From: Acetobacteraceae bacterium
GTDB taxonomy: Bacteria > Pseudomonadota > Alphaproteobacteria > Acetobacterales > Acetobacteraceae
Direction: 5' to 3'
NCBI GenBank assembly: GCA_035497095.1
Contig: DATJEA010000248.1
Coordinates: 1 to 45,938, forward strand
Length of the DNA: 45,938 bases
Part shown: piece by piece, positions 6,865 through 42,082 of the stretch
Numbering within the stretch: position 1 is the stretch's first letter
Layout: each line of letters begins with the position of its first letter
Notes under the pieces: generated by a model
The model's database searches: none
Told to the model about the DNA's origin: nothing
The model's input: the letters and a program-made list of their open reading frames with translations, nothing else
Translations under genes and position numbers: made by a program

Positions 6865-6998
6865 ACAGAGTAAAGAGTCTTCCGCTTTCAAAAAGAAGCA
6901 AAAACTTCAATCCATGAAGTCGAGTCGCGGAGTCCCCGCACACCCCAACGAATAAAAAGTTTTTTTGCTTCTTTTTGTTCACAAAAAGAAGACCTTAC
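6865..6998 (-). repeat. MITE-like AT-rich nested-palindrome element, copy 1 (full length, left module degenerate)
   Basis: The right end is GTTTTTTTGCTTCTTTTTGTTCACAAAAAGAAGACCTTAC and abuts the TAA stop (6999-7001) of the TPP beta-subunit gene. The left end is GTCTTCCGCTTTCAAAAAGAAGCAAAAAC. The GC-rich centre is GTCGCGGAGTCCCCGC. Confidence 0.85.
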
Positions 6999-7610
6999 TT
7001 AACTCGGCGCGACCCCCAAAGCCGCCCGAAACCGCGTGGTAAGATACGCCCCGTCGCGCGGCGGCAGGAAGCGGGTCACGTCCTCGGGCGAGATGCGGAT
7101 GGTGGCGAACAGCGCCTCGCGGCGCAGCCGGGGGCGCAAAGCCTCGACGCTCGGCATGTCGGTGACGATTTCAGCGGCACTCCAGCCGCAGGCGCGCGCC
7201 ATTGCCGCCAGGTCGGCGCCGAGTGCGGTATGGCTGGACTGGTGGCCGGTCTCGGCGAACTGGCCGTTGTCCAGCACCGCGATCGACAGGTTCGGCCGTT
7301 TGGCGGCAGCGACGGTGGCCAGCGAACCGAGGCCCATCAGCATCTCGCCGTCGCCGGTGATCACCAGCACGCGGCGCTTCGGCTGCGCGATGGCAAGGCC
7401 GAGCCCGATCATCAGCGCGCCGCCCATCGCGCCCCACAGATAGAAGTTCTCCGGCCGATCGCCGGCGGCACCGGCGTCATAGGTGGTGGAGCCGAGGCCG
7501 GTGACTACCAGCAACTCGCCGCCCGGGGTATCGGCGGTGTCCCGCAGCAGGCTCGCCACCACCTGGCGGCGATCCAGCAATGCATTGGCAAGATTGTTCA
7601 TTTCACCCAC
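6999..7610 (-). CDS. Thiamine-diphosphate-dependent decarboxylase, beta subunit (ComE-like; sulfopyruvate/phosphonopyruvate decarboxylase family)
   Basis: 203 aa. It carries the canonical TPP-binding motif GDGEMLMGLGSLATVAAAKRPNLSIAVLDNG (GDG-N25-N). Its size matches split ComE-type subunits. It overlaps the upstream alpha-subunit gene by 13 nt. Confidence 0.75.
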   Translation of the reverse strand: MGEMNNLANALLDRRQVVASLLRDTADTPGGELLVVTGLGSTTYDAGAAGDRPENFYLWGAMGGALMIGLGLAIAQPKRRVLVITGDGEMLMGLGSLATVAAAKRPNLSIAVLDNGQFAETGHQSSHTALGADLAAMARACGWSAAEIVTDMPSVEALRPRLRREALFATIRISPEDVTRFLPPRDGAYLTTRFRAALGVAPS

Positions 7611-8116
7611 ACCTTGGCCCCGATCAGGCGTTGCGACAGCAGCACGGCCACCGGAATCGCGCAGTCATAGGCGAGCCTGGCGCTGGCGGCGACCAGTTCC
7701 ACCACCTCGTCGGCCCGCTCGGCGCGGCGGATATGCACGCCGGCGGCCTGCAACACCGGCCCGGTGCTGCTGCCCATCGGCACCTGCCACGGGTTGAACT
7801 CGCCCCATTCGCCGCGCATCGTCACCAGGGTGAACAGCGGCATGCGGCAATGGATCGGCAGCGACAGCATGTTGATGGTGTTGCCGACGCCGCTCGACTG
7901 CATCAGCAACACGGCGCGGCTGCCGCCGAGATGCGCGCCGGCAGCCATCGCGACGCCCTCCTCCTCGGTGGTGAGCACCACCGCGGTCATCTCCGGGTCG
8001 GCATGGCTGCGGTCGATCAGCCGGGAGTGGCCGGCATCGGGCACGTAGCCCACCTGCCGCACGCCGGCATCTTTCAGGGCGGCATAGACACCGTCCTGCC
8101 AAGGTTCAGTGGTCAT
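7598..8116 (-). CDS. Thiamine-diphosphate-dependent decarboxylase, alpha subunit (ComD-like, pyrimidine-binding domain)
   Basis: 172 aa. The TTEEEGVAMAAGAHLGG...LLMQSSGVGN pattern is typical of the N-terminal PYR domain of TPP enzymes. Its size matches ComD. It is translationally coupled to the beta subunit. Confidence 0.75.
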   Translation of the reverse strand: MTTEPWQDGVYAALKDAGVRQVGYVPDAGHSRLIDRSHADPEMTAVVLTTEEEGVAMAAGAHLGGSRAVLLMQSSGVGNTINMLSLPIHCRMPLFTLVTMRGEWGEFNPWQVPMGSSTGPVLQAAGVHIRRAERADEVVELVAASARLAYDCAIPVAVLLSQRLIGAKVWVK

Positions 8117-8129
8117 GAGGGTACTCCTT

Positions 8130-8149
8130 CTGCGGGCATCTTCCCGCAG
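8130..8149. promoter_or_regulatory. Perfect 7-bp inverted repeat CTGCGGG-N6-CCCGCAG in a divergent promoter region
   Basis: It lies in the 96-bp interval between the divergent TPP-alpha (start 8116) and acyl-CoA dehydrogenase (start 8213) genes. It sits immediately upstream of the alpha-subunit Shine-Dalgarno sequence on the minus strand. Confidence 0.25.
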
Positions 8150-8212
8150 CCTGCCTTGCGCGCAATCCCCCCCCGCCGTAATCCAGTGCGATCAGATGCT
8201 GCCGAGGACCGC

Positions 8213-9385
8213 ATGATGGATCACGCTCCCGCCCGACCGGACGAGCATGCCGAGATCCGTGAGGAGGTGGCCAAGCTCTGCGCCGGCTTCCCAGGCGAAT
8301 ACTGGCGCAAGCTGGACGAGGTGCGCGGCTACCCCACCGAATTCGTCAACGCGCTGACCGAATCCGGCTATCTGGCCGCGCTGATCCCCGAGGAATATGG
8401 CGGCGCCGGGCTGCCACTGTCCGGCGCCGCGGCGATCCTGGAGACGGTGCAGGCAACTGGCTGCAACGGTGCCGCCTGCCATGCGCAGATGTACATCATG
8501 GGCACCATCCTGCGGCACGGCAACGAGGCGCAGAAGCGCACCTATCTGCCGAAGATCGCCACCGGCGAGTTGCGCTTGCAGGCGTTCGGCGTCACCGAGC
8601 CGACCAGCGGCACCGACACCACCAGCCTGCGCACCTTCGCCAAGAAGGAGGGCGATAAGTATATCGTCAACGGCCAGAAGGTGTGGACCAGCCGGGTGGA
8701 ACATTCCGACCTGATGCTGTTGCTGGCGCGCACCACGCCGCGCGACCAGGTAAAGCGCAAGACCGAGGGGCTCTCGACCTTCATCGTCGACATGCGCACG
8801 GTGCTGGACAAGGGACTGACCATCCGGCCGATCCGCACCATGATGAACCACAACTCCTGCGAGGTGTTCTTCGACAATATGGAAGTGCCGGCCGAGAACC
8901 TGGTCGGCGTGGAAGGCAAGGGGTTCCGCTACATCCTCGACGGGATGAACGCCGAGCGACTGCTGATCGCCTCGGAATGTATCGGCGACGCCAAGTGGTT
9001 TACCGCAAAATCAACCGCCTACGCCAATGACCGCAAGGTGTTCGGCCGCCCGATCGGGCAGAACCAGGGCATTCAGTTCCCGATCGCCCGCGCCTATTCG
9101 CAGATGCGCGCCGCCGAGTTGCTGGTGCGCGAGGGTATCCGTAAATTCGATGCCGGCGAGCACTGTGGGGAGGAGGCCAACATGGGCAAGATGCTTGCCG
9201 CCGAGGCGAGTTGGGCCGCCGGCGAGGCCTGCATCCAGACCCATGGCGGCTTCGGATTCGCCGAGGAATACGACGTGGAACGCAAGTTCCGCGAAACCCG
9301 GCTGTACCAGGTGGCGCCGATCAGCACCAATCTGATCCTGTCCTACCTTGCCGAGCACGTGCTCGGCCTGCCCCGGAGTTACTAG
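8213..9385 (+). CDS. Acyl-CoA dehydrogenase family flavoprotein
   Basis: 390 aa counted from ATGATG at 8213; the longer ORF from 7580 overlaps the divergent genes and was trimmed. ACAD hallmarks seen: AFGVTEPTSGTD, NGQKVWTS, GKGFRYILDGMNAERL and a THGGFGFAEEYDVERKFRE C-terminus. Confidence 0.9.
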   Translation: MMDHAPARPDEHAEIREEVAKLCAGFPGEYWRKLDEVRGYPTEFVNALTESGYLAALIPEEYGGAGLPLSGAAAILETVQATGCNGAACHAQMYIMGTILRHGNEAQKRTYLPKIATGELRLQAFGVTEPTSGTDTTSLRTFAKKEGDKYIVNGQKVWTSRVEHSDLMLLLARTTPRDQVKRKTEGLSTFIVDMRTVLDKGLTIRPIRTMMNHNSCEVFFDNMEVPAENLVGVEGKGFRYILDGMNAERLLIASECIGDAKWFTAKSTAYANDRKVFGRPIGQNQGIQFPIARAYSQMRAAELLVREGIRKFDAGEHCGEEANMGKMLAAEASWAAGEACIQTHGGFGFAEEYDVERKFRETRLYQVAPISTNLILSYLAEHVLGLPRSY

Positions 9386-9386
9386 C

Positions 9387-13233: not shown

Positions 13234-14282
13234 CCCTCGCCGGCGTCACCCGCCGCTTCACCGCCACCGGCGCGGCGGCGGTCGATGCCGTCGACCTCAC
13301 CGTCGCCGATGGCGGCTTCATCGCGCTGCTCGGCCCGTCCGGCTGCGGCAAGACCACGCTGCTGCGGCTGATCGCCGGCTTCGAGCGGCCCGACGCCGGC
13401 CGTATCACCATCGGTGACGACGCGGTGGCCGGGCCGGGCGGCTTCGTGCCGCCGGAGCGCCGGCAGGTCGGCATGGTGTTCCAGTCCTTCGCGCTGTGGC
13501 CGCATATGACGGTGGCCGGCAATGTCGGCTATCCGCTGCGGGTCGCCGGCATCCGCGGCGCGGACTACACAAGCAAGGTCGCCGAGGCGCTCGATGCCGT
13601 CAGCCTCGGCCCGCTTGCCGGCCGCCGACCGGCTGCCCTGTCCGGTGGCCAGCGCCAGCGCGTCGCCCTGGCCCGCTGCCTGGTGATGCGGCCGCGCGTG
13701 GTGCTGCTGGACGAACCGCTGGCCAGCCTGGACCCGCATCTGCGCACCGCCATGCAGGCCGAGTTCTCCCGCTTTCACGCCCTGACCCGAGCCACCATGA
13801 TCTACGTCACCCACGACCAGGCCGAGGCGCTGGCGCTGGCCGACCAGGTGGCGGTGATGCAGCACGGCCGCATCGCCCAGCTTGCCCCGCCGCGCGAGCT
13901 CTACCGCGCGCCGGCCAGCGAATTCGTCGCCCGCTTCGTCGGCGGCGGCGCGGTGGTACCGGCGACCGTGCTCTCGGCCTCCGGCGACACCGCCGAGGTG
14001 GAACTGCTCGGCCTGCGCCGCCTTCTGCGCGCCGCGCCCGGCCAGCGCCCCGGCCCGGCTTTGGCCTGCCTCCGGCCGGAAGACCTGCGGCTCGCGGCCG
14101 ATGGCGCGCCGGCGATCTTGCGGGCGGCGCGCTACCAGGGGGCGACGACCGAGGCGGAACTGGAGGTGAGCGGGCAGACGGTCTGGCTGCGGACGCAGGG
14201 GGAAACGATGGGGGACCGCTTGCGTCTCGACGTCGTCGATGGGTGGGTGATTCCGGCAAGCAAGGAAGCGGTTCTTTTTTGA
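13221..14282 (+). CDS. ABC importer ATP-binding protein (FbpC/PotA-like)
   Basis: Walker A GPSGCGKTT, signature LSGGQRQRVALARCL, Walker B VVLLDEPL, plus a C-terminal regulatory or OB-like domain. The last 7 codons and the TGA stop lie inside the repeat half-element. The start is GTG 13221 or GTG 13230. Confidence 0.9.
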   Translation: MARVTLAGVTRRFTATGAAAVDAVDLTVADGGFIALLGPSGCGKTTLLRLIAGFERPDAGRITIGDDAVAGPGGFVPPERRQVGMVFQSFALWPHMTVAGNVGYPLRVAGIRGADYTSKVAEALDAVSLGPLAGRRPAALSGGQRQRVALARCLVMRPRVVLLDEPLASLDPHLRTAMQAEFSRFHALTRATMIYVTHDQAEALALADQVAVMQHGRIAQLAPPRELYRAPASEFVARFVGGGAVVPATVLSASGDTAEVELLGLRRLLRAAPGQRPGPALACLRPEDLRLAADGAPAILRAARYQGATTEAELEVSGQTVWLRTQGETMGDRLRLDVVDGWVIPASKEAVLF

Positions 14283-14299
14283 AAAAAGAACCAAAACAC
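14260..14299 (-). repeat. MITE-like element, solo half copy (B-type terminal module)
   Basis: The sequence is GCAAGGAAGCGGTTCTTTTTTGAAAAAAGAACCAAAACAC, with a perfect 10-bp A/T-rich hairpin. It is wedged between the convergent stops of the ABC ATPase (TGA 14280-14282, in the hairpin loop) and the uracil-DNA glycosylase gene (TAA 14301-14303). Confidence 0.8.
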
Positions 14300-14300
14300 T

Positions 14301-14957
14301 TTAATCCTTAAGGCGTTGTACAAGGGTCTTTACGACCTCCTCGAACATCTCGGTGGTCAGGCGGCCGGTGTTGGTGTTGTAGCGGGAGACATGGTACGAA
14401 TTGGCCAGGATCAGGCCATCCGGCAATTCATGCATCGCGCCGTGGCGGAACCGGATCCTCGACGGCGGTATGCCGCACGCCTTCAGCACCGCGGCATGCG
14501 CCAGCACGCCCAGCGCCAGCACCGCCCGCACCGCCGCCAGCCCCTGCAACTCACCGGCGAGAAACTGGTTGCAGGTCCTCACCTCCGCCGGCTGCGGCAG
14601 ATTGGCCGGCGGCACGCAGCGCACCGCGTTGGTGATGCGGGCGCCGTGCAGCACCAGGCCGTCATCCGGCTCGGCCAGATACACCCCCTCGGCGAGCCCG
14701 AAGCGCAGCAGCGTCTGGTACAGCAGCATCCCGGCATGGTCGCCGGTGAACGGTCGGCCGGTGCGATTGGCGCCCTTCACGCCGGGCGCCATGCCGACCA
14801 CCAGCAACCTGGCGTCGAGCGGCCCGAAACTCGGCACCGGCGCGTTGAACCACTCGGAATGGGCAGCCTGGTTGGCGGCGCGGTAGGCGACCAGCCTGGG
14901 GCAGAGCTGGCAATCGGCGGCCGGCGCCGGCGGCGCGGCGATGGTGCTGGTTTTCAT
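14301..14957 (-). CDS. Uracil-DNA glycosylase superfamily protein, family 5 (UdgB)-like
   Basis: Motif A is VVGMAPGVKGANRTGRPFTGD and motif B is SYHVSRYNTNTGRLT. The N-terminal CxxCPRL resembles the Fe-S ligand region of family 4/5 enzymes. Confidence 0.75.
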   Translation of the reverse strand: MKTSTIAAPPAPAADCQLCPRLVAYRAANQAAHSEWFNAPVPSFGPLDARLLVVGMAPGVKGANRTGRPFTGDHAGMLLYQTLLRFGLAEGVYLAEPDDGLVLHGARITNAVRCVPPANLPQPAEVRTCNQFLAGELQGLAAVRAVLALGVLAHAAVLKACGIPPSRIRFRHGAMHELPDGLILANSYHVSRYNTNTGRLTTEMFEEVVKTLVQRLKD

Positions 14958-15005
14958 GCCCCGAGACTGCCGCAAGGCGGTGCAGAAATGCTTAAGCCGC
15001 CCGCC

Positions 15006-15611: not shown

Positions 15612-15774
15612 GGCCGGCAACCTTTCGGGCTGTGATGCGCTGGCGGATCGGGTAAACACGCGGCCCCGGACCCTGGGTTTGAACGGTTTTATGAATTGCG
15701 GCGGTTTGCGCCGACAGTCAAGCAGATGTCGCAGTCAGGGCGGATATTTGCGTTACACAGCCAAGGAGGTGGCG

Positions 15775-16281: not shown

Positions 16282-16384
16282 GCGATCCCGCGCAACCTTG
16301 CTGCACTGCAACCCTTGCACCGCCCGGCCGCAGGCCCTACATAACCCCCTTGCCTGATTTTGCCCCTACCCGGAGGTTGAGCGC

Positions 16385-16789: not shown

Positions 16790-16845
16790 TCGGTATGGCC
16801 CGCACGGATCGTATCGCTGATCCGCGCAACGCCGGCTGAGCCCGC

Positions 16846-21109: not shown

Positions 21110-21999
21110 CCCGCTGCGGCTTCGTCGCCATCGTCGGCGCCCCCAATGCCGGCAAGTCGACGCTGCTGAACCGGCTCACCGGCGCCAAGCTTTCCATCGT
21201 CTCGCCCAAGGCGCAGACCACGCGCTTTCGCGTGCTCGGCATATTGATGCGCGGCGAGAGCCAGATCCTGCTGGTCGACACCCCCGGCATCTTCAAGCCG
21301 AAGCGCCGGCTGGACCGCGCCATGGTCCGCGCCGCCTGGACCGGCGCCGAGGATGCCGACCTGGTGCTGCTGCTGGTCGACGCCAAGACCGGCCTCACCC
21401 CCGCGGTGCGCGACATCGCCGAAAGCCTGGCCGCTCGCAACGGCAAAGCCTGGCTGGTGTTGAACAAGTCCGACCTGGTCCCGCCTGCCCGCCTGCTGCC
21501 GCTCACCGCCGAGCTCAACGCCATCGCCAGCTTCGAACACACCTACATGGTCAGCGCGGCGCACGGCGATGGCCTGGACGTGCTGCTCGACGCGCTGGCC
21601 GGCGCGGTGGCCGAGGGACCGCATCTCTACCCCGAGGACGATCTCACCGACCTGCCCGACCGCCTGCTCGCCGCCGAGATCGTGCGCGAGCAGATCTTCA
21701 TGCAGACCCACGAGGAAGTCCCCTACGCCGCCACCGTGGAAACCGAAGCCTTCCAGGAACGCCGCGACGGCTCGGTGCGGATCGAAGCCACCATCTACGT
21801 CGCCCGCGCCAGCCACAAGGCGATCCTGATCGGCGCCGGCGGCGCCCGCATCAAGGAAATCGGCGCCCGCGCCCGCGCCCAACTCGGCGACCTGCTGGAA
21901 CGCCGCGTGCACCTGTTCCTCAACGTCAAGGAACGCGCCGGCTGGGATGAGGAAGGCGCACGGCTGCGGGCGATCGGGTTGGATACCAGCGAAGAGTAG
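21106..21999 (+). CDS. era: GTPase Era
   Basis: G1 GAPNAGKST, G3 DTPG, G4 NKSD and a C-terminal KH domain. ATGA overlap with the rnc stop. The TAG stop lies at the edge of repeat copy 2. Confidence 0.95.
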   Translation: MTRCGFVAIVGAPNAGKSTLLNRLTGAKLSIVSPKAQTTRFRVLGILMRGESQILLVDTPGIFKPKRRLDRAMVRAAWTGAEDADLVLLLVDAKTGLTPAVRDIAESLAARNGKAWLVLNKSDLVPPARLLPLTAELNAIASFEHTYMVSAAHGDGLDVLLDALAGAVAEGPHLYPEDDLTDLPDRLLAAEIVREQIFMQTHEEVPYAATVETEAFQERRDGSVRIEATIYVARASHKAILIGAGGARIKEIGARARAQLGDLLERRVHLFLNVKERAGWDEEGARLRAIGLDTSEE

Positions 22000-22136
22000 G
22001 AAAGCAGTTCTTTTTTGCAAAAAAGAACCAAAAAAACTCTCATTCGCCTTGCACCACCGGAGCGCGGGGAACGCCGTACACTCCAATGGATAGAAAGTTT
22101 TTTTGCTTCTTTTTGTTCACAAAAAGAAGACCTTCC
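21996..22136 (-). repeat. MITE-like AT-rich nested-palindrome element, copy 2 (full)
   Basis: The left end is GTAGGAAAGCAGTTCTTTTTTGCAAAAAAGAACCAAAAAAAC. The GC-rich centre is GGAGCGCGGGGAACGCCGTACACTCC. The right end is GTTTTTTTGCTTCTTTTTGTTCACAAAAAGAAGACCTTCC. Confidence 0.9.
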
Positions 22137-22153
22137 CTTCCCTGGCCGCCGCG

Positions 22154-22405
22154 TCACCCCTCCGCGTCATCCTCGTCCGGCTGGTTGTAATACCAGTCCA
22201 GCACCTCGTCGTGGAAATCCGGGTCCTTCAGCAGCCGCATCGCCAGCGCCAGCACGATCTCGGGTGCCGCCGGCAACTCCTCGGCATCATCCGGCATTTC
22301 CACCCCGGCGACGACGCGAACCGACATCGAGCCGTCCTCCTCGCCGATGATCAGGGCGACTTCCGTCGCATCCAGTTCCACTTTCAGCGTCGATTCTGCC
22401 GACAT
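22154..22405 (-). CDS. Small, highly acidic hypothetical protein (83 aa)
   Basis: GC3-rich codon use, with GAAGGGA 8 nt upstream of the ATG. I count about 24 Asp/Glu against 4 Lys/Arg. I recognised no family. It is divergent from pqiA. Confidence 0.5.
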   Translation of the reverse strand: MSAESTLKVELDATEVALIIGEEDGSMSVRVVAGVEMPDDAEELPAAPEIVLALAMRLLKDPDFHDEVLDWYYNQPDEDDAEG

Positions 22406-26109: not shown

Positions 26110-26116
26110 AATCGGT

Positions 26117-26710
26117 TTACCGCGTCTGCGCCAAAGCCCGCAAACCCCGCGCGCCGGCGGACTGGCCCATCAGCGTGACGCGGGCGGGGTCGCCGCCGAA
26201 CGCGGCGATGTTGGCCCGCGCCCAGCGCAGGGCGGCGATCATGTCCAGCAGCGCCATGTTGCCGTCCGCGACGCCGGGCAGATGCAGGAAGCCGAGCGCG
26301 CCGAGGCGGTAGTTGGCGGCGACGAACACCACATCGCCGTCGCGGGCGAGATGCGCGCCGTCATACCGGTCCAGCGAGCCGGTGCCGGTGAAATAGGCGC
26401 CGCCATGCCGCCAGACGATCACCGGCCTTGCGCCGCTGGTGGAAGGCGTGGCGATGGTGAGGGTGAGGCAGTCCTCCGAGTGCGGACGGTCGAAATCGCC
26501 CATCGCGGCGCGCAGGCGGGAGGGCGGTTGCGGGGCGATCGGGCCATGCGTGGTGGCGTCATGCAAGCCGGCCCAGGCAGCGGGCGGCTGCGGCGGGGCG
26601 AAGCGCAATTTGCCGGCCGGCGGTGCGGCGTAGCGGATGTTGCGGAAGTTCAGCACGCCATTGGCGGCAAAGCCCTGGAGGTCGCGTTGCAGTGTGTGGG
26701 CAATGGTCAT
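26117..26710 (-). pseudogene. Truncated type-B carboxylesterase paralogue (N-terminal 190 aa only)
   Basis: It aligns by eye with residues 1-190 of the upstream full-length esterase, for example NFRNIRYAAPPAGKLRFAPPQP, HGPIAPQ, EDCLTLTI, WRHGGAYFTG, ANYRLGALGFLHLPG and FGGDPARVTLMGQSAGA. It ends 10 codons after the GQSAG nucleophile elbow. The acid and His parts of the triad are missing. Confidence 0.75.
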
Positions 26711-28170
26711 CGGCGGCTGTCCATGCCGGCAGGGTCTCCGGCGACGCTAACGACGCGGTCCAGTTGCATGGTGAGGCGGCGTCCGGCGTCGTAGCGCGGC
26801 CAGGGCAGGCCGGGGAGCGAGGGGTCGCCGTGCTCGATGAAGGCGGCCCAGGCGGCGCGGATATGGGCGGAGAGCGCCTGCATCTCGCCGGCGCCGCCGC
26901 CGGCCAGCATGCCGGCATCGGGCCAGGAGGCGAAATTGCCGAACACGAAGGGCAGTTCGATGCAGTGGCAGGCGTGAAAGCGGCTGCCGGGCGGCGCCCA
27001 GTTGAACTGATAGCCGAAGACCGGGCCGGCGGCGGCCTCGGCCAGTTGCATGGCGGGCCAGAGGAAGGTGCGGTCGCTGGACAGGTCGGCCAGCAGGTCC
27101 ATCGGCGAGCCGGCCGGGCGGCGGCGGCGATAGGCCCCCTCGCTGGCGCCGAGCGCCTGGAAACGGGCGGCGACCTTGGCCGGGTCCAGGCTGGCCATGG
27201 CGGGGTTGGAGGCGAAGAAGGCGTGCACCTCTTCGCGCGTGGCGCCGATCAGCAGCGGCTTGCCCTCGGCGGCGGCGGCGATGGCGGCGATCAGTTCCGG
27301 CTGGGTGAGTGCGCCAGGCAGCGTCGGCATGAACGGCGGGTTGGTCTCGGCGAAGCGGGCACGGGCGGCGGCTAGCGCGACTTGCGCGTCGAGCAGCGCG
27401 GCCACGGGGACGGTGCGCATGCGGTCGCCGAGGTCGGGTGCGGCGGGGTCGAAGCCGAGATGGCCGAGGTAGTCGCCGGCGGTGGCGGCGGCCGCGCTGC
27501 GGGAGAGCGGCGGGCGGCCGAAGCTGCCGCTTTGCAGAATTGCGGCGCGGAACTGGCGGCAGGCGACAGGGTGCAGCAGCAGCCGGCCGATCGAGGCGGC
27601 GCCGGCCGACTGGCCGGCGACGGTGACACGGGCCGGGTCGCCGCCGAACGCCGCGATATTGGCCTGCACCCAGGCCAGCGCCGCCACCTGATCGAGCGTG
27701 CCGGGGTCGCCTTCCTCGGGGGTGACGCCGGGCAGATGCAGGTAGCCGAGCGCGCCAAGCCGGTAATTGACGCCGACCACGACGATGCCGGCCTCGCGCG
27801 CCAGCACGCTGCCGTCGTACCAGTCCAGCGAGGCGGCGCCGGACATCCAGGCGCCGCCATGCAGCCAGACCAGCACCGGACGCTTCGCGGTATCCGCGGC
27901 CGGCGTCCAGATGGTCAGCGTCAGGCAGTCCTCGTCCATCGGCTTGCGAAAATCGCCCATCGCCGGGGCGAGCCGGGTGGGGGTCTGCGGCGCGATCGGG
28001 CCGTGCGCGGTGGCGTCGCGCTGGCCAATCCAGGGGATGGCCGGCTGCGGTGCCGAGAAGCGCAGCCGGCCGGTCGGTGATGCGGCGTAGGGTACGGCGC
28101 GAAAGATGGCGATACCATCCTCGGTGCGGCCGGCGAGGTCCCCGCTTTGGCTGTGCGCGATGGCGGTCAT
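26707..28170 (-). CDS. Carboxylesterase type B (para-nitrobenzyl-esterase-like alpha/beta hydrolase)
   Basis: 487 aa from the ATG at 28170. Oxyanion HGGAW, nucleophile elbow GQSAGA, and the C-terminal His region CHCIELPFVFGN are present. The ORF-track N-terminal extension to 28350 was trimmed. Confidence 0.85.
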   Translation of the reverse strand: MTAIAHSQSGDLAGRTEDGIAIFRAVPYAASPTGRLRFSAPQPAIPWIGQRDATAHGPIAPQTPTRLAPAMGDFRKPMDEDCLTLTIWTPAADTAKRPVLVWLHGGAWMSGAASLDWYDGSVLAREAGIVVVGVNYRLGALGYLHLPGVTPEEGDPGTLDQVAALAWVQANIAAFGGDPARVTVAGQSAGAASIGRLLLHPVACRQFRAAILQSGSFGRPPLSRSAAAATAGDYLGHLGFDPAAPDLGDRMRTVPVAALLDAQVALAAARARFAETNPPFMPTLPGALTQPELIAAIAAAAEGKPLLIGATREEVHAFFASNPAMASLDPAKVAARFQALGASEGAYRRRRPAGSPMDLLADLSSDRTFLWPAMQLAEAAAGPVFGYQFNWAPPGSRFHACHCIELPFVFGNFASWPDAGMLAGGGAGEMQALSAHIRAAWAAFIEHGDPSLPGLPWPRYDAGRRLTMQLDRVVSVAGDPAGMDSRR

Positions 28171-28175
28171 GCCGG

Positions 28176-28495
28176 TCAGACTCCCAGATGGCGATGCGCC
28201 AGGGCGGGATCGAGCGCCGCGGCGGGGCCCCGCCAGACGGTGCGGCCCTTCTCGATGATGACGTGATGGTCGGCCAGACGCTTCAGCGCCGCAAGGTTCT
28301 TGTCGACCAGCAGGATGGCGAGGCCCTCGGATTTGAGCGCTTGCAGGCACTGCCAGATCTCGGCGCGGATCAGCGGCGCCAGACCCTCGGTGGCTTCGTC
28401 GAGGATCAGCAGGCTGGGATTGGTCATCAGCGCGCGGCCGATCGCCAGCATCTGCTGCTCACCGCCGGCCAGACCACCCAGGCGGCCGTGACGCC
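28176..28495 (-). pseudogene. LivF-type ABC ATPase remnant (C-terminal third only, no Walker A)
   Basis: The frame reads RLGGLAGGEQQMLAIGRALMTNPSLLILDEATEGLAP...LLVDKNL. This covers the signature, Walker B and H-loop region. No N-terminal half is present. Confidence 0.75.
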
Positions 28496-28765
28496 AGGAA
28501 TGAGGCCGAGAAACTGGCTGTCATCGGCGGCGTGGAAGGCCAGGATGCCGACGACATAGCCGCCGAGCCCGAAGAAGCCGGCATGGCCGAAACTCGGCAA
28601 CCCGGTACGGCCCAGCAGCAGATCGAGCGCCACCGCGGCGATGGCTAAGACGGTGACCTGGGTGGCAAGCGTTATGAAATCCGGCCGGTGCAGTGCCCAG
28701 GCGAGCAGCGGCATCAGCGCGAGCAGCGCCAGGATCAGCAATGTTACGTAGCGTTGGCGGATCAT
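28496..28765 (-). pseudogene. LivM-type permease remnant (N-terminal ~90 aa) fused out of frame to the livF remnant
   Basis: MIRQRYVTLLILALLALMPLL...LLLGRTGLPSFGHAGFFGLGGYVVGIL matches the N-terminus of LivM-family permeases; compare the intact copy at 44204-45169. The reading frame then runs into the livF signature region in another frame. Confidence 0.7.
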
Positions 28766-28766
28766 G

Positions 28767-28899
28767 GCAGGGAAGTCTTCTTTGTTTGAAAACAAAGAAG
28801 CAAAAAAACTTCATCCCCTGGAGTCACCGCTGGCGCGGTCCGATGGACAATGGATGGGGTTTTTTGGTTCTCTTTTGCAAAAAAGAACTGCTTCCTTGC
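28767..28899 (+). repeat. MITE-like AT-rich nested-palindrome element, copy 3 (full)
   Basis: The left end is GCAGGGAAGTCTTCTTTGTTTGAAAACAAAGAAGCAAAAAAAC. The centre is CCTGGAGTCACCGCTGGCGCGGTCCG. The right end is GTTTTTTGGTTCTCTTTTGCAAAAAAGAACTGCTTCCTTGC. It lies 1 nt from the livM-remnant ATG and 1 nt from the livH-remnant stop. Confidence 0.9.
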
Positions 28900-28900
28900 T

Positions 28901-29772
28901 TCACCCATGCGCCGGAAACAATCCGCGCGGGCGCAGCAGCAACACCAGCGCCATCAGGATGAAGATCGACATCGACGCCAACCCGGCCGCCACCGCGTCG
29001 GCGCTGGACACCAGCAACACGCGCGCAGCAGCGCCGGCAGGAAGGCGCGCGACAGCGTGTCCACCATGCCAACCAGCATCGCGCCGGCAAACGCGCACCG
29101 CACCGAGCCGAGCCCGCCGATCACGATGACCACGAAGGTGGTGATCAGGATGCGGTCGCCCATGCCGACCTGCACCGACGGCAGCGGCCCGGTCAGCACC
29201 CCGGCCAGCCCGGCCAGCAGCGCGCCGAGGGCGAAAATCGCCGTGGTCAGCTTGCCGATATCCACCCCTAGCGCCCGCACCATGTCCCGGTTGGTCGCCC
29301 CCCGCGCAGCAGCATGCCGAGCCTGGTATGGCCGATCAGCCAGCACAACCCGCCCGCCACCGCCAACCCCGCGACGATGATCGCCAGCCGGAACACCGGA
29401 TACGGCACGCCGACGGTGAGCGGCCGGCGGCCCAAGATCATCGCCATCGCCTCGTTGAAGAACAGGATCAGCCCGAAGGTCGCCACCACCTGGTCCAGAT
29501 GATCGCGCCCATACAGCCGCCGCAACACCACGATTTCCATCGCAACGCCGGCCGCGCCGGCAGCGGCCAGCCCGGCGAGCAGCCCGAGCAGAAACGAGCC
29601 GGTCTGCCCCTGCACCCAGGCCGCCGCGAAGGCGCCGATCATGAATAGCGAGCCATGCGCCATGGTTGATCAGCCCCATCACGCCGAACACCAGCGTGAG
29701 TCCGGCAGCCATCGGGAACAGCATCACGCCGAATTGCAGCCCGTTCAGCACTTGCTCGGCAAGCAGGGTCAA
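28901..29772 (-). pseudogene. LivH-type branched-chain amino acid ABC permease, disrupted by at least three frameshifts
   Basis: LivH-like sequence continues across three reading frames: (1) TLLAEQVLNGLQFG...LTLVFGVMGLIN; (2) MAHGSLFMIGAF...IGHTRLGMLLR; (3) ATNRDMVRALGVDIGK...MVDTLSRAFLPALL; (4) VLLVSSADAVAAGLASMSIFILMALVLLLRPRGLF. Confidence 0.75.
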
Positions 29773-29794
29773 GGCAGCGTGCGTCCCGCCCGGC

Positions 29795-30964: not shown

Positions 30965-31004
30965 CGCGGGCTCCTTGACCAACGGAAACGGGGAATTGTC
31001 ATTT

Positions 31005-31474: not shown

Positions 31475-31542
31475 GCCCCTCCCCTATTGGTGCGACCGCG
31501 CCAGCCTAGCCCAATTTTCCGTCGCTGGAAACGAATCCGCGC

Positions 31543-33107: not shown

Positions 33108-33121
33108 GGCGTGCGTTCCAA

Positions 33122-33251
33122 GCAAGGTCTTCTTTTTGTGAACAAAAAGAAGCAAAAAAACTTTTTATTCCCTGGAGTCCGGACCGCGGTCCGAGACTCC
33201 ACGGATGAAGTTTTTTGCGCGCTTTTCTTCAAAAAAGCGCTGCTTCCTTGC
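33122..33251 (+). repeat. MITE-like AT-rich nested-palindrome element, copy 4 (full)
   Basis: The left end is GCAAGGTCTTCTTTTTGTGAACAAAAAGAAGCAAAAAAAC. The centre is GGAGTCCGGACCGCGGTCCGAGACTCC. The right end is GTTTTTTGCGCGCTTTTCTTCAAAAAAGCGCTGCTTCCTTGC. It abuts the korB stop (33252-33254). Confidence 0.9.
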
Positions 33252-34307
33252 CTACCTAAGCGAAGCGTTGAGCTTGTCGAGCGCCGCCGACCCAGGCACC
33301 AGATCGCCATCCGTCAGCGCATTGAACGGCGTCGCCACAGTGTCGAGATAGCCGTGCAGGTCGTCCGCCTCGGGATCGACATAGAGCAGGCCGGTGACGA
33401 TCTCGCCGCGCGCGTGGTGGTGTTGCAGGTAGTTCATCGCGCTGGCGCGGTCGTTCGCGTTGTATTCGTCGTCCAGCTTGCGCAGCTTGAGCAGCGAGCC
33501 GTCGTGCTGGCGAACGATCTCCACCGAGCCAGGCGTGTAGTTGGTGACGATCTCGTCGCGGCCGGTGATGACGTCGAGAAAGTTCACCGCCTCGTTATGC
33601 TCACGCACGTAATCGAAACTCTTGGTGCTGCCGTCATGGTTGTTGAACGCGACGCAGGGGCTGATGCAGTCGATGAAGGCGGCGCCCTTGTGCTTCAGGG
33701 CGCCCTTGATCAGCGGCACCAGTTGCGTCTTGTCGCCGGAAAAGCCGCGCCCGACATAGGTGGCGCCGAGTTGCAGCGCCATGCCGATCATGTCGATCGG
33801 TTCGTCGAGATTGGGCACGCCGCGCTTGTTCTTGGCGCCCTTGTCGGCGGTGGCGGAAAACTGGCCCTTGGTCAACCCGTAGACGCCATTGTTCTCGACG
33901 ATATAGGTCATGTTGACGCCGCGCCGCATCGAATGCGCGAACTGCCCGAGGCCGATCGAGGCGCTGTCGCCATCGCCGGAAACGCCGAGATAGATCAGGT
34001 CGCGGTTGGCCAGGTTGGCGCCGGTCAACACGCTGGGCATCCGGCCATGCACCGAGTTGAAACCGTGCGAATTGCCGAGGAAATAGGTCGGCGTTTTCGA
34101 CGAACACCCGATGCCGGACAGCTTGGCGATGCGATGCGGCGGCAGATCGAGCTCGAAACAGGCGCGCACGATCGCCGCACTGATCGAATCATGCCCGCAC
34201 CCGGCGCAGAGCGTGGAGATTGCCCCCTCATAATCCCGCCGCGTGAACCCCAGCGCGTTCTTCGGCATATCCGGGTGATGCAGCTTCGGCTTCGGCAAAT
34301 AGGTCAT
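33252..34307 (-). CDS. korB: 2-oxoglutarate (2-oxoacid):ferredoxin oxidoreductase beta subunit
   Basis: 351 aa from MTYLPKP. It has a CAGCGHDSI cluster or TPP region and the GDGDSASIG TPP-binding motif. ATGA overlap with the korA stop. Confidence 0.9.
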   Translation of the reverse strand: MTYLPKPKLHHPDMPKNALGFTRRDYEGAISTLCAGCGHDSISAAIVRACFELDLPPHRIAKLSGIGCSSKTPTYFLGNSHGFNSVHGRMPSVLTGANLANRDLIYLGVSGDGDSASIGLGQFAHSMRRGVNMTYIVENNGVYGLTKGQFSATADKGAKNKRGVPNLDEPIDMIGMALQLGATYVGRGFSGDKTQLVPLIKGALKHKGAAFIDCISPCVAFNNHDGSTKSFDYVREHNEAVNFLDVITGRDEIVTNYTPGSVEIVRQHDGSLLKLRKLDDEYNANDRASAMNYLQHHHARGEIVTGLLYVDPEADDLHGYLDTVATPFNALTDGDLVPGSAALDKLNASLR

Positions 34308-37944: not shown

Positions 37945-38099
37945 CTCCCCTTGCCGTCCCGGCGCCGGCTGCGCCGCGTCGCCCCGGCATTTTCGCCTGG
38001 GGATAATTCAGTATGGCACCACCGCCGCCCCTCCGGTAGACCCCCCGCAACGCCGATCAGGGCTGGCGCCGCACCGCTTTTTGCCGCGATGATGCCGGT

Positions 38100-38951: not shown

Positions 38952-39004
38952 CGCTTCCCCCATCGCCTGCTATGCTGACCCGGCAAAACAGCGGAGCACC
39001 TGCA

Positions 39005-39757
39005 ATGAGCCTGACAGTCCTGGTCACCGGCGCCTCGGCCGGCTTTGGCGCGGCGATCGCGCGGCGCCTGGTGGCCGATGGCCATCGCGTCATCGCCGCC
39101 GCCCGCCGGCAGCAGCGGCTGGCCGCCCTGGCCGCCGAACTCGGCGACCGCCTGCTGCCGATCACGCTCGACGTCACCGACGCCGCCGCCGTCGCCGCCC
39201 TGCCCGCCAGCCTGCCGGAGGCGTGGCGAGCGGTCGATGTGCTGGTCAACAATGCCGGCCTCGGCCTCGGCCTCTCCCCGGCCTGGCAGGCCGATCTGGC
39301 GCAGTGGGACACCATGGTGGCAACCAACGTCACCGGCCTGATCCACATGACCCGCGCGCTGCTGCCCGGCATGGTGGAGCGCGACCGCGGCCATGTGATC
39401 AACATCTCCAGCACCGCGGCGATCTACCCCTATCCGGGCGGCCACGTGTATGGCGCCTCGAAAGCCTTCGTCACCCAGTTCAGCCTCAATTTGCGCGCCG
39501 ATCTGGTCGGCACCGGGGTGCGCGTCACCGACCTGGAGCCTGGTCTGGTCGGCGGTTCGGAATTCTCCCAGGTGCGCTTCGGCGACGCCGCCCGCGCCGC
39601 CGCGGTCTATGCCGGCACCACGCCGCTCAACCCGGAGAACATCGCCGAGGCGGTCGCCTGGGTGCTGGCGCTGCCGGCGCATATGAACGTCAATCGCATG
39701 GAACTGATGCCGACCTGCCAGGCGCCCTCGGCGCTGACCATCAAGCGCAAGACCTGA
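39005..39757 (+). CDS. Short-chain dehydrogenase/reductase, YdfG-like NADP-dependent 3-hydroxy acid dehydrogenase
   Basis: It has TGASAGFG, NNAG and YGASKAF (YxxxK), and is 250 aa long. Confidence 0.8.
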   Translation: MSLTVLVTGASAGFGAAIARRLVADGHRVIAAARRQQRLAALAAELGDRLLPITLDVTDAAAVAALPASLPEAWRAVDVLVNNAGLGLGLSPAWQADLAQWDTMVATNVTGLIHMTRALLPGMVERDRGHVINISSTAAIYPYPGGHVYGASKAFVTQFSLNLRADLVGTGVRVTDLEPGLVGGSEFSQVRFGDAARAAAVYAGTTPLNPENIAEAVAWVLALPAHMNVNRMELMPTCQAPSALTIKRKT

Positions 39758-39764
39758 ACCGCGG

Positions 39765-40997
39765 GTGCGCCACCCGCTCCTGCGCATCACCCTGCCGCTC
39801 TCCGGGGTCAACTTCCTGACCCAGGCAGCGCGCGCGGTGCTCTCGGTGGTCGGGCCGGTGCTGGCGGTGCAGTACGGGCTGTCGGCCAGCCAACTCGGCC
39901 TGCTCAGCGCGGTGATGTTCGCCGCCTACGGGCTGTGGCAATTGCCGGTCGGCCTGCTGCTCGACCTGTACGGGCCGCGCGCGGTGCAAACCTGCATGGC
40001 CGTGGTGGCCGCCGCCGGTTTCGCCGCCTTCGCGCTGGCCGATGGCATGACCGGCTTCATGCTGGCCCGCGCGCTGATGGGCGTCGGCGTCGCCTCCGGG
40101 CTGATGGCGGTGCTGAAGGCGCACAGCCTGTGGTTCCAGCGGCATCAGGTGGCGGCCGTCACCGGCATCGCCATGGTGGTGGCCGGCAGCGGCGGCCTCG
40201 CCGTCACCGCCCCGGCCGACGCGCTGCTGCCGCTGATCGGCTGGCGCGGCGTGTTCTGGGTGCTGGCCGCCCTCGGCCTGCTCAGCGCCGCCGCCTGCTG
40301 GCTGTCGGTGCGCGAACCGCCTCGCGCCGAAGCCGGCGGCCGGCGCCGCGATGGGCGCAAGGTCGCCGAGGCGGTCGCGGTGGTCGGCGCGATCTATTCC
40401 CACCCGGTGTTCTGGCGCTTCACCCCGTCGGTGATCCTGCTGACCATCATCAATTTCTCCTACCAGGCGCTGTGGGCCGGCCCCTGGCTGCGCGACGTCG
40501 CCGGGCTGGGCGGCAGCGCGCGGGCCAGCGTGCTGTTCTGCTACGCGCTGGGGCTGATGGCCGGCGCCTTCGTCACCGGCCAACTGGCCACGCGGATGCA
40601 GGCGCGCGGCTGGTCGCCGATGACCATCCCGTTCGCCTGCGCGTTCGGGGTGATGGCGGTGCAACTGGCGCTGCTCTGCGGCCCGACCGGCCATCTCACC
40701 GTCACCCTGCTCTGGGTGGCGCTGCCGTTCTTCGCCTCGGCCGGCCCGGCCGGCTATGCGGCGATCGCGCAGATCTTCCCGGTCGAGCAGATGGGCCGGG
40801 TCTCGACGGCGATCAACACCATCACCCTGGCCGGCGCCTTCGCGTTGCAGACGGCGATCGGCGCCATCCTGGACCTCTGGCCGCGCACCGCCAGCGGCGG
40901 CTGGGCCAGCGCCGGCTATGGCTGGGCGCTGGCGCTGTCGATCGCCCTGCAACTGGCCGCCCTGGTCTGGGCAGCGCTGCCCCGCCACCGGCGCTAG
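39765..40997 (+). CDS. MFS transporter
   Basis: 410 aa, about 12 hydrophobic segments, and a GLLLDLYGPR loop resembling MFS motif A. GTG start. Confidence 0.75.
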   Translation: MRHPLLRITLPLSGVNFLTQAARAVLSVVGPVLAVQYGLSASQLGLLSAVMFAAYGLWQLPVGLLLDLYGPRAVQTCMAVVAAAGFAAFALADGMTGFMLARALMGVGVASGLMAVLKAHSLWFQRHQVAAVTGIAMVVAGSGGLAVTAPADALLPLIGWRGVFWVLAALGLLSAAACWLSVREPPRAEAGGRRRDGRKVAEAVAVVGAIYSHPVFWRFTPSVILLTIINFSYQALWAGPWLRDVAGLGGSARASVLFCYALGLMAGAFVTGQLATRMQARGWSPMTIPFACAFGVMAVQLALLCGPTGHLTVTLLWVALPFFASAGPAGYAAIAQIFPVEQMGRVSTAINTITLAGAFALQTAIGAILDLWPRTASGGWASAGYGWALALSIALQLAALVWAALPRHRR

Positions 40998-41066
40998 CTT
41001 GCCCAGCAGCCCCCCGCTTGCCCAGCAGTCCGGGGCGCGGCAGGCTGGCGCAGGGGGAACCGAACC

Positions 41067-42023
41067 ATGCATCTGCTGTCCGGCCGCGACGTTGCCAGCC
41101 TGGTCGAGATCGCCGACCTGATCGCGCCGCTGGAAGCCGCGATGATCCAGGTTTCCGCCGGCAACGCCGAATTGCCGCTGCGCAGCATGGTGAAACTGCC
41201 AGGCGGCAACGCGATGGGCATCATGGGCGGCGCGCTCGGCGACCCGCCCGGTCATGGCATCAAGGTGCTGAGCCTGTTCCCCGACAACCCGCGCCACGGC
41301 CGCTCCTCGCATGCCGGGCTGATGCTGCTGTTCGACGCCGAAACCGGCCTGCCGCTGCTGTGCATGGATGCCGCCGTGCTGACCGCGATCCGCACCGCCG
41401 CCGCCAGCGCGGTCGCCACCAAGGCGCTGGCCCGGCCGGACGCCTCGGTGCTGGCGATCCTCGGCACCGGCGAACAGGCCGGCAGCCATGTCGCCGCCAT
41501 GCGCGCGGTCCGCCCGATCAGCCGCATCCTGGTCTGGGGCCGCGACCCGGCCAAAACCGCCGCCTTCGCCGCGCAACACGGCGCCGAGCCGGCCGCAAGC
41601 GTCGCCGCCGCGGTAGCGCCGGCCGATATCATCGTCACCGCCACCCCCGCCCGCACCCCGTTCCTGCTGGCCGAGATGCTGCGCCCCGGCCAGCACATCA
41701 ACGCGGTCGGCGCCAGCGTGGCCAGCATGCAGGAACTGGAAGCCGCCTGCCTGCAACGCGCCAGCCTGTTCACCGACTACATCCCCTCGATGGAACCGCA
41801 GGCCGCCGAACTGATCGCCGCCCGCCGCCAGGGTCTGATCGCACTGAACCATCCGATCACCGAAATCGGCGCGGTGCTGGCCGGCAGCCCCGGCCGCAAG
41901 GATGCCGGCGAGATCACCCTGTACCGCTCGCTCGGCATCGCCGCGCAAGACCTGGCGGCGGCGCATTTCATCCTGGCCCGCGCCCGTACCCGGGGTGTGG
42001 GGAGCGAGTTGGACATCACATGA
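41067..42023 (+). CDS. Ornithine cyclodeaminase / mu-crystallin family protein
   Basis: 318 aa. It has LTAIRTAAASAVATKALAR followed by the Rossmann motif ILGTGEQAGSH, typical of the OCD/mu-crystallin family. Confidence 0.85.
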   Translation: MHLLSGRDVASLVEIADLIAPLEAAMIQVSAGNAELPLRSMVKLPGGNAMGIMGGALGDPPGHGIKVLSLFPDNPRHGRSSHAGLMLLFDAETGLPLLCMDAAVLTAIRTAAASAVATKALARPDASVLAILGTGEQAGSHVAAMRAVRPISRILVWGRDPAKTAAFAAQHGAEPAASVAAAVAPADIIVTATPARTPFLLAEMLRPGQHINAVGASVASMQELEAACLQRASLFTDYIPSMEPQAAELIAARRQGLIALNHPITEIGAVLAGSPGRKDAGEITLYRSLGIAAQDLAAAHFILARARTRGVGSELDIT

Positions 42024-42042
42024 TCCGGGCCGACTGAAGCAA

Positions 42043-42082
42043 GCAAGGCCTTCTTTTTGTGAACAAAAGGAAGCAAAACAAC
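42043..42082 (+). repeat. MITE-like element, solo half copy (A-type terminal module)
   Basis: The sequence is GCAAGGCCTTCTTTTTGTGAACAAAAGGAAGCAAAACAAC. It lies 19 nt after the OCD stop and 24 nt before the SDR start. Confidence 0.8.

Follow-up and report, generated by a model that had tools for sequence, protein, structure and literature searches.

What is a short, AT-rich nested palindrome doing at the ends of genes in a GC-rich alphaproteobacterial genome? The question is raised by a 45,938-nt stretch of DNA from an Acetobacteraceae bacterium (GenBank assembly GCA_035497095.1, contig DATJEA010000248.1, positions 1 to 45,938), referred to here at its full length as the window, in which an initial annotation, made from the letters alone, described six copies of one such element within 46 kb. 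The analysis reported here leads us, with moderate confidence, to regard the element as a non-autonomous repeat resembling REPs (repetitive extragenic palindromes), BIMEs (bacterial interspersed mosaic elements) and MITEs (miniature inverted-repeat transposable elements), with a core that would act as a bidirectional terminator or RNA stabiliser. It is apparently undescribed: an Acetobacteraceae-wide, AT-rich, three-hairpin repeat in which a terminator-like core is embedded.

Copies and anatomy of the repeat

The repeat is non-coding, about 130 bp long, and represented in the window by ten terminal modules that make up four full elements and two solo ends (Table 1). A profile hidden Markov model (HMM) was built from the ten ends claimed earlier and run over the window with nhmmer, all filters off; it recovered the ten modules with E-values of 2e-12 to 1e-5 and no eleventh, the other matches in the window being weak reverse readings of the elements' own palindromic hairpins. 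The count of six copies thus stands, and the coordinates first given for them lie within a few bases of the refined ones. A strict pattern for the hairpin and its A-run (TTCTTTTT, 2-6 nt, AAAAAGAAS, CAAAAAA) matches four times in the window, compared with 0.00 in 100 dinucleotide shuffles. As a negative control we used 605 kb of unrelated GC-rich metagenomic DNA, namely the metagenome relatives (72-79%) of the neighbouring thiamine pyrophosphate (TPP)-enzyme gene, which contained no module at E <= 1e-3 and no strain-level empty site. Since the G+C content of the window is 67.7%, the elements stand out as AT-rich islands. The repeat family is real and goes beyond chance.

A full element consists of two inverted terminal modules, of about 45 nt each, around a GC-rich central hairpin. 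From the outside inward, each module comprises a purine-rich outer motif, a perfect AT-rich hairpin, the sequence C-A(5-7)-C and an inner flank that reads CTTTTGTCC or CTTCATCC; the A6-7 run is followed by the GC-rich centre hairpin, a T6-7 run, a second hairpin that is usually of the other type, and the inverted outer motif. The AT-rich hairpin, the C-A(5-7)-C sequence and the inverted inner flanks had all been described in the initial annotation and are seen at the copies, and the GC-rich centre that it gave as GGAGT...ACTCC is found as GGAGTC...GACTCC between the inner flanks of copies 3 and 4. An outer motif exists as well; GCAAGG, proposed as the start of each terminus, is just one form of a purine motif (AAGN)n of variable length and 4-nt beat, of which AAGCAAGG, GGAAGGAAGG and GAAAGCAAGC are examples. 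The hairpins fall into two main types, CTTC...GAAG and GTTC...GAAC, with the sequences CTTCTTTTT...AAAAAGAAG and (G)GTTCTTTTTT...AAAAAAGAAC(C). Copies 2, 3 and 4 have one end of each type, and copy 1 combines a CTTC-type right end with a decayed left end. The left module of copy 3 shows a compensatory stem change (CTTCTTTGTTT/AAACAAAGAAG), the GCGC hairpin variant of copy 4 recurs at the HPPK gene of a related genome (L129, see below), and in the solo module at 42042-42090 the core has collapsed to CTTTT-CATGC-AAAAG.

Distribution across the Acetobacteraceae and in viral sequences

The prediction that further copies would be found is amply borne out. A pattern scan covered 185,579 species-representative genomes, and at least 119 genome stretches match, almost all of them from Acetobacteraceae among the matches listed; in IMG/VR, 103 stretches match the pattern and hold 244 modules. 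Cultured carriers include Acidiphilium rubrum ATCC 35905, Roseomonas sp. GC11, Gluconacetobacter liquefaciens (DSM 5603), G. tumulicola, G. aggeris and Rhodovarius crocodyli (CCP-6), and the metagenome-assembled genomes (MAGs) with copies include Acidocella and Rhodovastum; the complete sequences OZ240673.1, OZ255625.1 and OZ255628.1 are carriers too. The few matches in MAGs of Bacteroidales and Clostridia were dismissed, being at the level expected by chance for an A/T-rich pattern in AT-rich genomes. Judged by Era protein identity, the nearest relatives of the window genome are 'Rhodospirillales bacterium 70-18' (94%) and Limobrevibacterium gyesilva (87%), and JGI metagenome contigs that encode identical proteins place the origin of the window in an uncultured soil/rhizosphere organism.

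On the genome loci, taken as 8-kb pieces per genome, the profile recovers 114 modules without a partner and 88 pairs that face inward, most of the latter spanning 127-135 nt. The architecture is alike in all genera with copies. Centre motifs also recur across genomes (CTGTCGCG...CGCGACAG; TGGAGTGCAC...CGCGACAG), which indicates that the whole unit, and not the ends alone, is homologous.

Among the viral sequences, a 31-kb IMG/VR contig (3300049216_000612; loci L159, L183, L192 and L207) encodes baseplate wedge, tail fibre and tail-fibre assembly proteins and carries full elements between co-directional phage tail genes, and related viral contigs from other samples (including L136 and L170) carry full elements beside the same 418-aa gene. 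The element is tolerated within late phage operons, whether these belong to active phages or to old prophages, and phages are a possible vehicle for its movement between hosts. A separate pair of viral contigs, L137 and L138, which are about 91% identical, differ by a 121-nt segment that is present at 3925-4047 of L137 and missing at 4068-4069 of L138. The segment comprises a centre and one terminal module, flanked by a stop codon (TAAGGG) on one side and on the other by the first hairpin of a resident element; the difference is either the insertion of a half-element or a deletion beside an existing copy.

Propagation, turnover and decay

Two copies on the chromosome OZ240673 (L068 and L056, at 2.33 Mb and 0.59 Mb and hence 1.7 Mb apart) are 95.5% identical over their full length, centre included, and several further full-length copy pairs are 88-91% identical; the mean identity of copies is 0.81 for pairs from the same genome and 0.75 between genomes. 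Ends of the GTTC group and CTTC ends are combined in 47 of 86 elements, with same-type ends in 15 where 24.5 are expected, and such an excess of heterotypic ends is what the copying of a defined unit would produce. To judge from these sequences, the element is propagated as a whole unit.

The comparison of orthologous sites, proposed in the initial annotation, reveals three junctions at which some relatives have an element and others have none. The era-nudix junction contains an element in the window, in L129 (Era 96% identical) and in L130 (Era 94%), and is empty in L131 (Era 88%), where the two genes overlap by GTGA. At the 3' end of the HPPK gene an element is present in L129, with none in the window or L130. 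The acyl-CoA dehydrogenase and CoA-transferase genes, which in the window meet as TAG-C-ATG with no element, are separated in L077 by a full element together with a new ribosome-binding site. In addition, the 3' end of the PqiC gene has a copy in L129 and none in the window, although the downstream gene differs, and L129 retains the solo module at the site orthologous to 14260-14309. In loci not chosen for the element, the number of modules is eight in 21 kb for L129, two for L130 and zero for L131 (19 kb). Most of the interior 'solos' retain a recognisable centre and a decayed second end, which identifies half copies as decay products. Taken together, these comparisons show copies that were evidently gained and lost over species-level timescales.

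Two other differences are seen at these sites. In L130, a tandem array of about four copies of the 15-nt unit GCCCGCTTAGCCCAG (3060-3125) comes shortly before the uracil-DNA glycosylase gene's stop codon, the place occupied by the solo module in the window and in L129. Both L129 (11034-11691) and L130 (11019-11665) have a nudix gene next to the era element, and this gene is missing from the window (22137-22154); the deletion begins no more than a few bases from where copy 2 ends on the right (...CCTTCCCTG|GCCGCC), with the result that this copy now faces a convergent 75-aa open reading frame (ORF).

Folding and covariation of the hairpins

Folded with ViennaRNA, copy 4 reaches -68.8 kcal/mol (z = -6.7) and adopts an outer stem, formed by the outer motif and its own inverted partner, that encloses three hairpins; copy 2 adopts the same fold more weakly (-51.2 kcal/mol, z = -3.9). 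Covariation was examined in an alignment of 148 distinct modules over an 11-pair hairpin, in which 85.5% of the cells are paired. The covariation score is 0.208, compared with 0.100 in shuffles, none of 500 of which reaches it, and with at most 0.124 when the 3' partners are slid. The base of the stem is swapped between G-C (68 modules) and C-G (38), another stem position is occupied by U-A in 129, C-G in 10 and G-C in 5, and the loop-nearest pair is U-A in 106 and G-C in 16. The orthologous era copies differ in the same compensatory manner, GCTTC/GAAGA in the window corresponding to GTTTC/GAAAA in L129. This covariation favours a hairpin that would function as a folded single strand, either RNA or single-stranded DNA (ssDNA).

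The same data bear on the alternative of a role in duplex DNA, in which a nucleoid-associated protein, gyrase or an IHF-like factor would have its binding or cruciform sites in the perfect AT-rich palindromes with their A-tracts and the resemblance to a terminator would be secondary. Such a role would suit AT-rich islands in a genome of 67.7% G+C, a layout with two unit types that parallels BIMEs, and the near-invariance across genera of the hairpin's inner T-run/A-run and the adjacent CAAAAAAC, which exceeds what pairing needs; E. coli BIMEs bind IHF and gyrase (PMC2817692). The compensatory changes at the base of the stem, however, fit a folded single strand better than two duplex half-sites, and the analysis identified no candidate protein. 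We regard a primary role in duplex DNA as very unlikely.

A terminator-like core at gene ends

A feature that had escaped the initial annotation is that the A-run, GC-rich hairpin and T-run of the core have the form of a bidirectional terminator. When 86 full elements were read both ways (172 orientations), a T-run of at least five was found to precede the outgoing hairpin in 155 orientations, and 104 passed a strict test that demands a T-run >= 5, a stem ending <= 2 nt from it and a core of <= -10 kcal/mol. The minimum free energy of the core is -21.5 kcal/mol, compared with -14.5 for mononucleotide shuffles, and in copy 4 the terminator-like match lies at 33189-33206 on the plus strand. In every case the A-run lies 5' and the T-run 3', an order that provides a hairpin followed by a U-tract on both strands; the reverse order, which would pair equally well without doing so, was never seen.

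The positions of the elements are compatible with such a function. Thirty-three lie between convergent genes, where they often make up the entire spacer, 39 between tandem genes and five between apparently divergent ones; distances on the stop side are mostly -3 to +25 nt and those on the start side are larger. The statement in the initial annotation that every copy in the window lies 0-24 nt from a stop or start codon is valid for at least one side of each copy and fails for both sides together, since some 215 nt separate the left end of copy 1 from its nearest gene and some 54 nt lie between the stop at 28954 and the right end of copy 3. The core is most likely a bidirectional intrinsic terminator, a 3'-end RNA stabiliser or both, a putative role that would explain why copies survive directly after stop codons.

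Alternatively, the repeat might not be mobile at all and could instead be the standard intergenic terminator or 3'-UTR cassette of the lineage, kept alike by selection and gene conversion, with apparent gains representing recombinational replacements. Ends that abut stop codons, elements that fill convergent spacers and a core that resembles a terminator in both directions all agree with this, as do the compensatory changes by which the orthologous era copies of the window and L129 keep their hairpins, and the hallmarks of transposition were not found (see below). It is difficult, however, to reconcile an immobile cassette with unlinked copies that are 95.5% identical even in parts without an obvious terminator role, with insertions into tightly coupled gene pairs (era/nudix, TAG-C-ATG) where a terminator is unexpected, with copies in a phage tail operon, or with densities that differ as strongly among relatives as eight, two and zero modules in L129, L130 and L131. 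Other convergent junctions in the window, moreover, use unrelated GC hairpins or nothing. We therefore consider an immobile cassette decidedly improbable and retain the reading of a propagating repeat with a terminator-like core.

Evidence against the proposed reading and the search for a mobility mechanism

A number of observations weigh against the reading that we prefer. The first group concerns mobility. Target-site duplications, which the initial annotation suggested looking for and which are a strict hallmark of a MITE, are not in excess: the longest common substrings of the flanks are no better than in mismatched-flank controls, and ungapped local alignment of the flanks gives 4.70, compared with 4.55 in those controls, tests that leave room for very short or eroded duplications. 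A YTAR duplication of the IS5 type, which would have explained the contacts with stop codons, is not supported: of 86 elements, 5 have YTAR on either flank, and in one of these the two are identical. A TNA-type duplication is likewise unsupported. No preferred orientation of the two end types is seen with respect to transcription or to local GC skew, and about 1.9 Mb of element-rich DNA contains no configuration resembling an insertion sequence (IS) and no element-linked transposase. The second group concerns turnover, as the differences between filled and empty sites could in part be losses instead of gains, and the 'empty' HPPK site of the window retains sequence resembling the left end of the element; a megablast comparison among all loci, aimed at recent clean insertions, returned complex differences and no clean ones. 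As to function, the element is found inside the era-nudix operon and the phage tail operon, 18 elements are followed within less than 60 nt by a co-directional gene and have centre hairpins no weaker than those at convergent junctions (p = 0.82), and a search for an outward sigma-70-like promoter detected none. Covariation itself could arise without selection, through template-switch correction in quasi-palindromes.

The strong hairpins at the 18 co-directional sites and the lack of a detectable outward promoter suggest that termination is probably partial or, alternatively, that the element acts mainly on RNA processing or stability. An effect of the latter kind is the classical one of intercistronic REPs.

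Two patterns that might have revealed how the element inserts were rejected. A 7-bp TGAAGAG repeat around the era copy of L129, considered as a duplication, is within chance expectation, and insertion at a fixed distance from the stop codon is contradicted by a stop-to-hairpin gap that shows no peak between its extremes of -13 and about +24 nt. A search for larger, potentially autonomous relatives yielded five module pairs spaced 300-3500 nt apart, three checked against Pfam and two by ORF listing, which enclose ordinary genes (LysE, glyoxalase) or short ORFs that match no transposase. In the viral loci, too, there is no transposase between paired modules, and the window encodes no transposase, as the initial annotation had stated.

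A more specific possibility is that of REP doublets forming hairpins (REPINs) or BIMEs in the strict sense, that is, REP pairs mobilised by a single-copy, vertically inherited REP-associated tyrosine transposase (RAYT), an HUH enzyme that acts on single-stranded hairpins. A RAYT acting in this way would explain both the persistence of the repeat across the family and the absence of target-site duplications. The architecture fits, with short inverted palindromes around a spacer and one long fold, and so do the two kinds of REP within one element, which recall the Y and Z units of BIMEs, solos that are decayed doublets, covarying stems, vertical persistence across the Acetobacteraceae and the existence of RAYT genes in the family. 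Searches with phmmer, using E. coli RAYT and IS200 TnpA queries, nevertheless found no RAYT in the window, and the 0.9 Mb of viral loci contain neither RAYT nor IS200-like genes. The sole RAYT in about 1.9 Mb, at 2587-3126 of L051 (Acetobacteraceae MAG bog_908; NCBIfam NF047646, 192 bits), is bracketed not by AT-rich modules but by inverted GC-rich, GTAG-headed REPs (GTAGGGTGGGGTGC) at 2513 and 3157 (region 2513-3170). As these REPs (GTAGGGTGGGGTGCTCTTCCGCACCCCACCC) occur nowhere else in 234 loci, the enzyme was rejected as the partner of the AT-rich repeat and assigned to a different, classical REP family. The modules, for their part, have no GTAG/GTGG or CGTC head and show no strand bias relative to GC skew. 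A search for an IS- or RAYT-like transposase with matching ends, another suggestion of the initial annotation, thus yielded no such enzyme in the 8-kb genome pieces covered, beyond which a single-copy partner may lie, and mobilisation by a RAYT appears unlikely. The genome of L051 is in itself a case in which a classical REP-RAYT pair coexists with the AT-rich repeat family.

The reading that we favour, that of a propagating REP/BIME/MITE-like repeat, can be put as follows. An Acetobacteraceae-specific interspersed repeat of about 130 bp is propagated as a whole unit, and its copies are gained and lost, decay into solo ends and are found in phage genomes as well; putative machinery would recognise the terminal hairpins and the outer motif as ssDNA or RNA hairpins; and the core would stop transcription on both strands, stabilise RNA 3' ends, or both. 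On present sequence evidence, the AT-rich hairpins and the outer motif are most likely the features recognised by such machinery. A bolder version, which we put forward as speculative and doubtful, would make the element a self-propagating 'portable terminator' cassette across the Acetobacteraceae and their phages, inserted at gene 3' ends without target duplication by a dedicated host or phage enzyme that is unrelated to RAYTs and DDE transposases and reads the AT-rich hairpin and (AAGN)n ends as folded single strands.

Relation to known repeats and catalogues

The initial annotation did not recognise the repeat as a named family, and the catalogues agree. There is no Rfam match at gathering score over the whole window, permissive thresholds on copy 4 give matches at chance level (E >= 0.058), and within the library searched, neither the literature on REP, MITE and REPIN repeats in Acetobacteraceae genera nor a search for the hairpin sequences themselves yielded a description of the element. 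A BLAST search of plasmids with copy 4 gave no match, probably owing to low-complexity masking.

In function and layout the repeat comes closest to REPINs and BIMEs and to regulatory MITEs. In REPINs and BIMEs two short palindromes are likewise inverted around a spacer and the whole can fold as a long hairpin; the 88 pairs are inward-facing palindrome pairs of this kind, and in the folds the outer stem encloses the hairpins. Shared features further include the presence of two kinds of unit in one element, comparable to the Y and Z REPs of BIMEs, an extragenic, high-copy occurrence at gene 3' ends, singlets produced by decay, the absence of target-site duplication and long vertical persistence in a lineage. 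The units here, however, are AT-rich perfect hairpins in a GC-rich genome, the sequence outside the hairpin is the variable purine motif (AAGN)n and not a GTAG/GTGG or CGTC head, A and T runs frame a spacer that is itself a GC hairpin, and about 1.9 Mb of locus pieces contain no cognate RAYT. According to a survey of REP superfamilies, CGTC REPs are missing in Acetobacteraceae (PMC3733652). Without such a head and a cognate RAYT, the element is not a demonstrated REPIN.

With MITEs such as the Correia elements of Neisseria, the 127-bp imperfect palindromes ERIC/IRU of enterobacteria and the pneumococcal RUP and BOX elements, the repeat shares a length of 100-150 bp, terminal inverted repeats, a location beside genes in transcribed intergenic regions, long RNA hairpins and sites that are filled or empty between relatives; like them it is small, non-coding and dispersed. 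Correia, ERIC/IRU and RUP/BOX elements are reported to affect termination, processing and mRNA stability. Correia and ERIC elements duplicate TA, whereas no target-site duplication was detected here, no parent IS was found, the termini hold perfect hairpins of their own, and the repeat spans a whole bacterial family and not just a genus. The initial classification as a dispersed, non-autonomous, MITE- or RIME-like repeat is accordingly upheld as regards dispersal, empty sites and the lack of a catalogue match and lacks support as regards target-site duplication and a parent IS; the element is not a demonstrated MITE, and '-like' is the right word.

As in intrinsic terminators, an A-tract, a GC-rich hairpin and a T-tract follow stop codons and lie between convergent genes, the GC hairpin directly preceding a U-tract, by sequence, on both strands. 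Ordinary terminators, by contrast, are not dispersed homologous copies, have neither two conserved AT-rich hairpins nor an outer AAGN motif, and do not share the occurrence inside operons seen here. Integron attC sites are also imperfect palindromes of similar length, located directly after upstream stop codons and recognised as folded single strands. An attC identity was rejected, as there are no RYYYAAC/GTTRRRY core sites and no integron or integrase context, and the flanking genes are housekeeping ones (era, HPPK, ABC transporters). CRISPR and tandem-repeat readings were dismissed from the sequence.

Gene context in the window

Genes were called by codon-position GC, by Pfam and by comparison with the gene tables that accompany metagenome contigs with identical proteins; the coordinates of the elements and their neighbours are collected in Table 1. 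The solo module at 14260-14309 contains both adjoining stop codons, that of the ABC ATPase gene (TGA, 14280-14282) in its hairpin loop and that of the uracil-DNA glycosylase gene at 14301-14303. The ATG of the truncated permease ORF is 1 nt from copy 3, and the solo module at 42042-42090 is kept in nine of nine metagenome contigs of the same species.

Table 1. Positions, types and neighbouring genes of the repeat copies in the window, with full elements of one viral locus for comparison
Feature	Position	Strand	Type or evidence	Neighbouring genes
Copy 1, full element	6869-6998	.	nhmmer E 9.7e-6 (left), 2.2e-11 (right)	
Copy 1, left module	6869-6916		degenerate; nhmmer	
Copy 1, right module	6949-6998		CTTC-type; nhmmer	abuts TAA stop (6999-7001) of TPP-enzyme gene (minus strand)
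Solo module	14260-14309	+	GTTC-type; profile match	fills 18 nt between convergent ABC ATPase and uracil-DNA glycosylase genes
Copy 2, full element	21997-22137	.	GTTC-type left, CTTC-type right	left module overlaps era TAG stop (21997-21999); right end 16 nt from stop of convergent 75-aa ORF
Copy 3, full element	28767-28899	.	CTTC-type variant left, GTTC-type right	between permease gene (stop 28954) and truncated permease ORF starting at 28765
Copy 4, full element	33121-33251	.	profile match and RNA fold	one side 0 nt from TAG stop of TPP-enzyme gene 33252-34298 (minus strand); other side 13 nt from amidase ATG (33107; minus strand)
Copy 4, outer motif	33120-33127		AAGCAAGG; 5' of CTTC-type hairpin	
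Copy 4, terminal hairpin	33129-33152		CTTC type, CTTCTTTTTG-TGAA-CAAAAAGAAG; sequence and fold	
Copy 4, core	33153-33217		C-A7-C, inner flank, GC-rich hairpin, inner flank, G-T6-G; sequence, fold	
Copy 4, GC-rich hairpin	33174-33200		GGAGTC...GACTCC; part of core	
Copy 4, second terminal hairpin	33219-33240		GCGC variant of GTTC type; sequence and fold	
Copy 4, inverted outer motif	33241-33251		TGCTTCCTTGC; 3' of second hairpin	
Solo module	42042-42090	+	CTTC-type; profile match	between co-directional ornithine cyclodeaminase (stop 42023) and short-chain dehydrogenase/reductase (SDR) gene (start 42107)
Full elements in viral locus L183	3129-3261, 6333-6480, 11665-11797			phage tail genes

Three further features of the window deserve mention. 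Between the DUF3592 gene and copy 1 there is a separate long inverted repeat (6703-6807), unrelated in sequence to the repeat family, with 43-nt arms that are 81% complementary, 19 nt apart and centred on GAAGAAGATTCTCTTCTTCTTCTTCC; the region 6640-6870 folds at -100.4 kcal/mol (z = -7.35). Near copy 3, a truncated carboxylesterase fragment (26117-26710), which matches positions 18-197 of the 515-position COesterase profile, adjoins a full-length paralogue (26707-28350) to which its DNA is 73-78% identical (repeats 26151-26425 and 27599-27879) and, together with the truncated permease ORF (28427-28765), resembles a patch of gene remnants. Finally, the convergent junction between the SDR gene and the periplasmic-binding-protein gene (42875-42922) has no element and carries instead a plain GC hairpin (GAGGGGGAC-TTG-GTCCCCCTC) with no T-run, which indicates that other 3'-end structures coexist with the repeat in this genome.

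Implications

Should the element prove to be one more REP or MITE family, it would be a useful but unsurprising entry in the catalogue, as such repeats are expected in many lineages. If the reading proposed here is correct, one small repeat has rewritten many gene ends and operon junctions in the Acetobacteraceae, a family of industrial and ecological importance that comprises acetic acid bacteria, acidophiles and Roseomonas, and has brought to them a ready-made two-way transcription stop or RNA-stabilising structure. Genome annotation would be affected, since ORFs run into modules and stop codons lie inside them, as would operon prediction, and the repeat would be relevant to the design of synthetic-biology parts in these bacteria and a handy lineage marker for the binning of metagenomic contigs. 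It would also represent a long-lived repeat with no RAYT or IS partner in sight, the persistence of which would be approachable by experiment in the cultured carriers.

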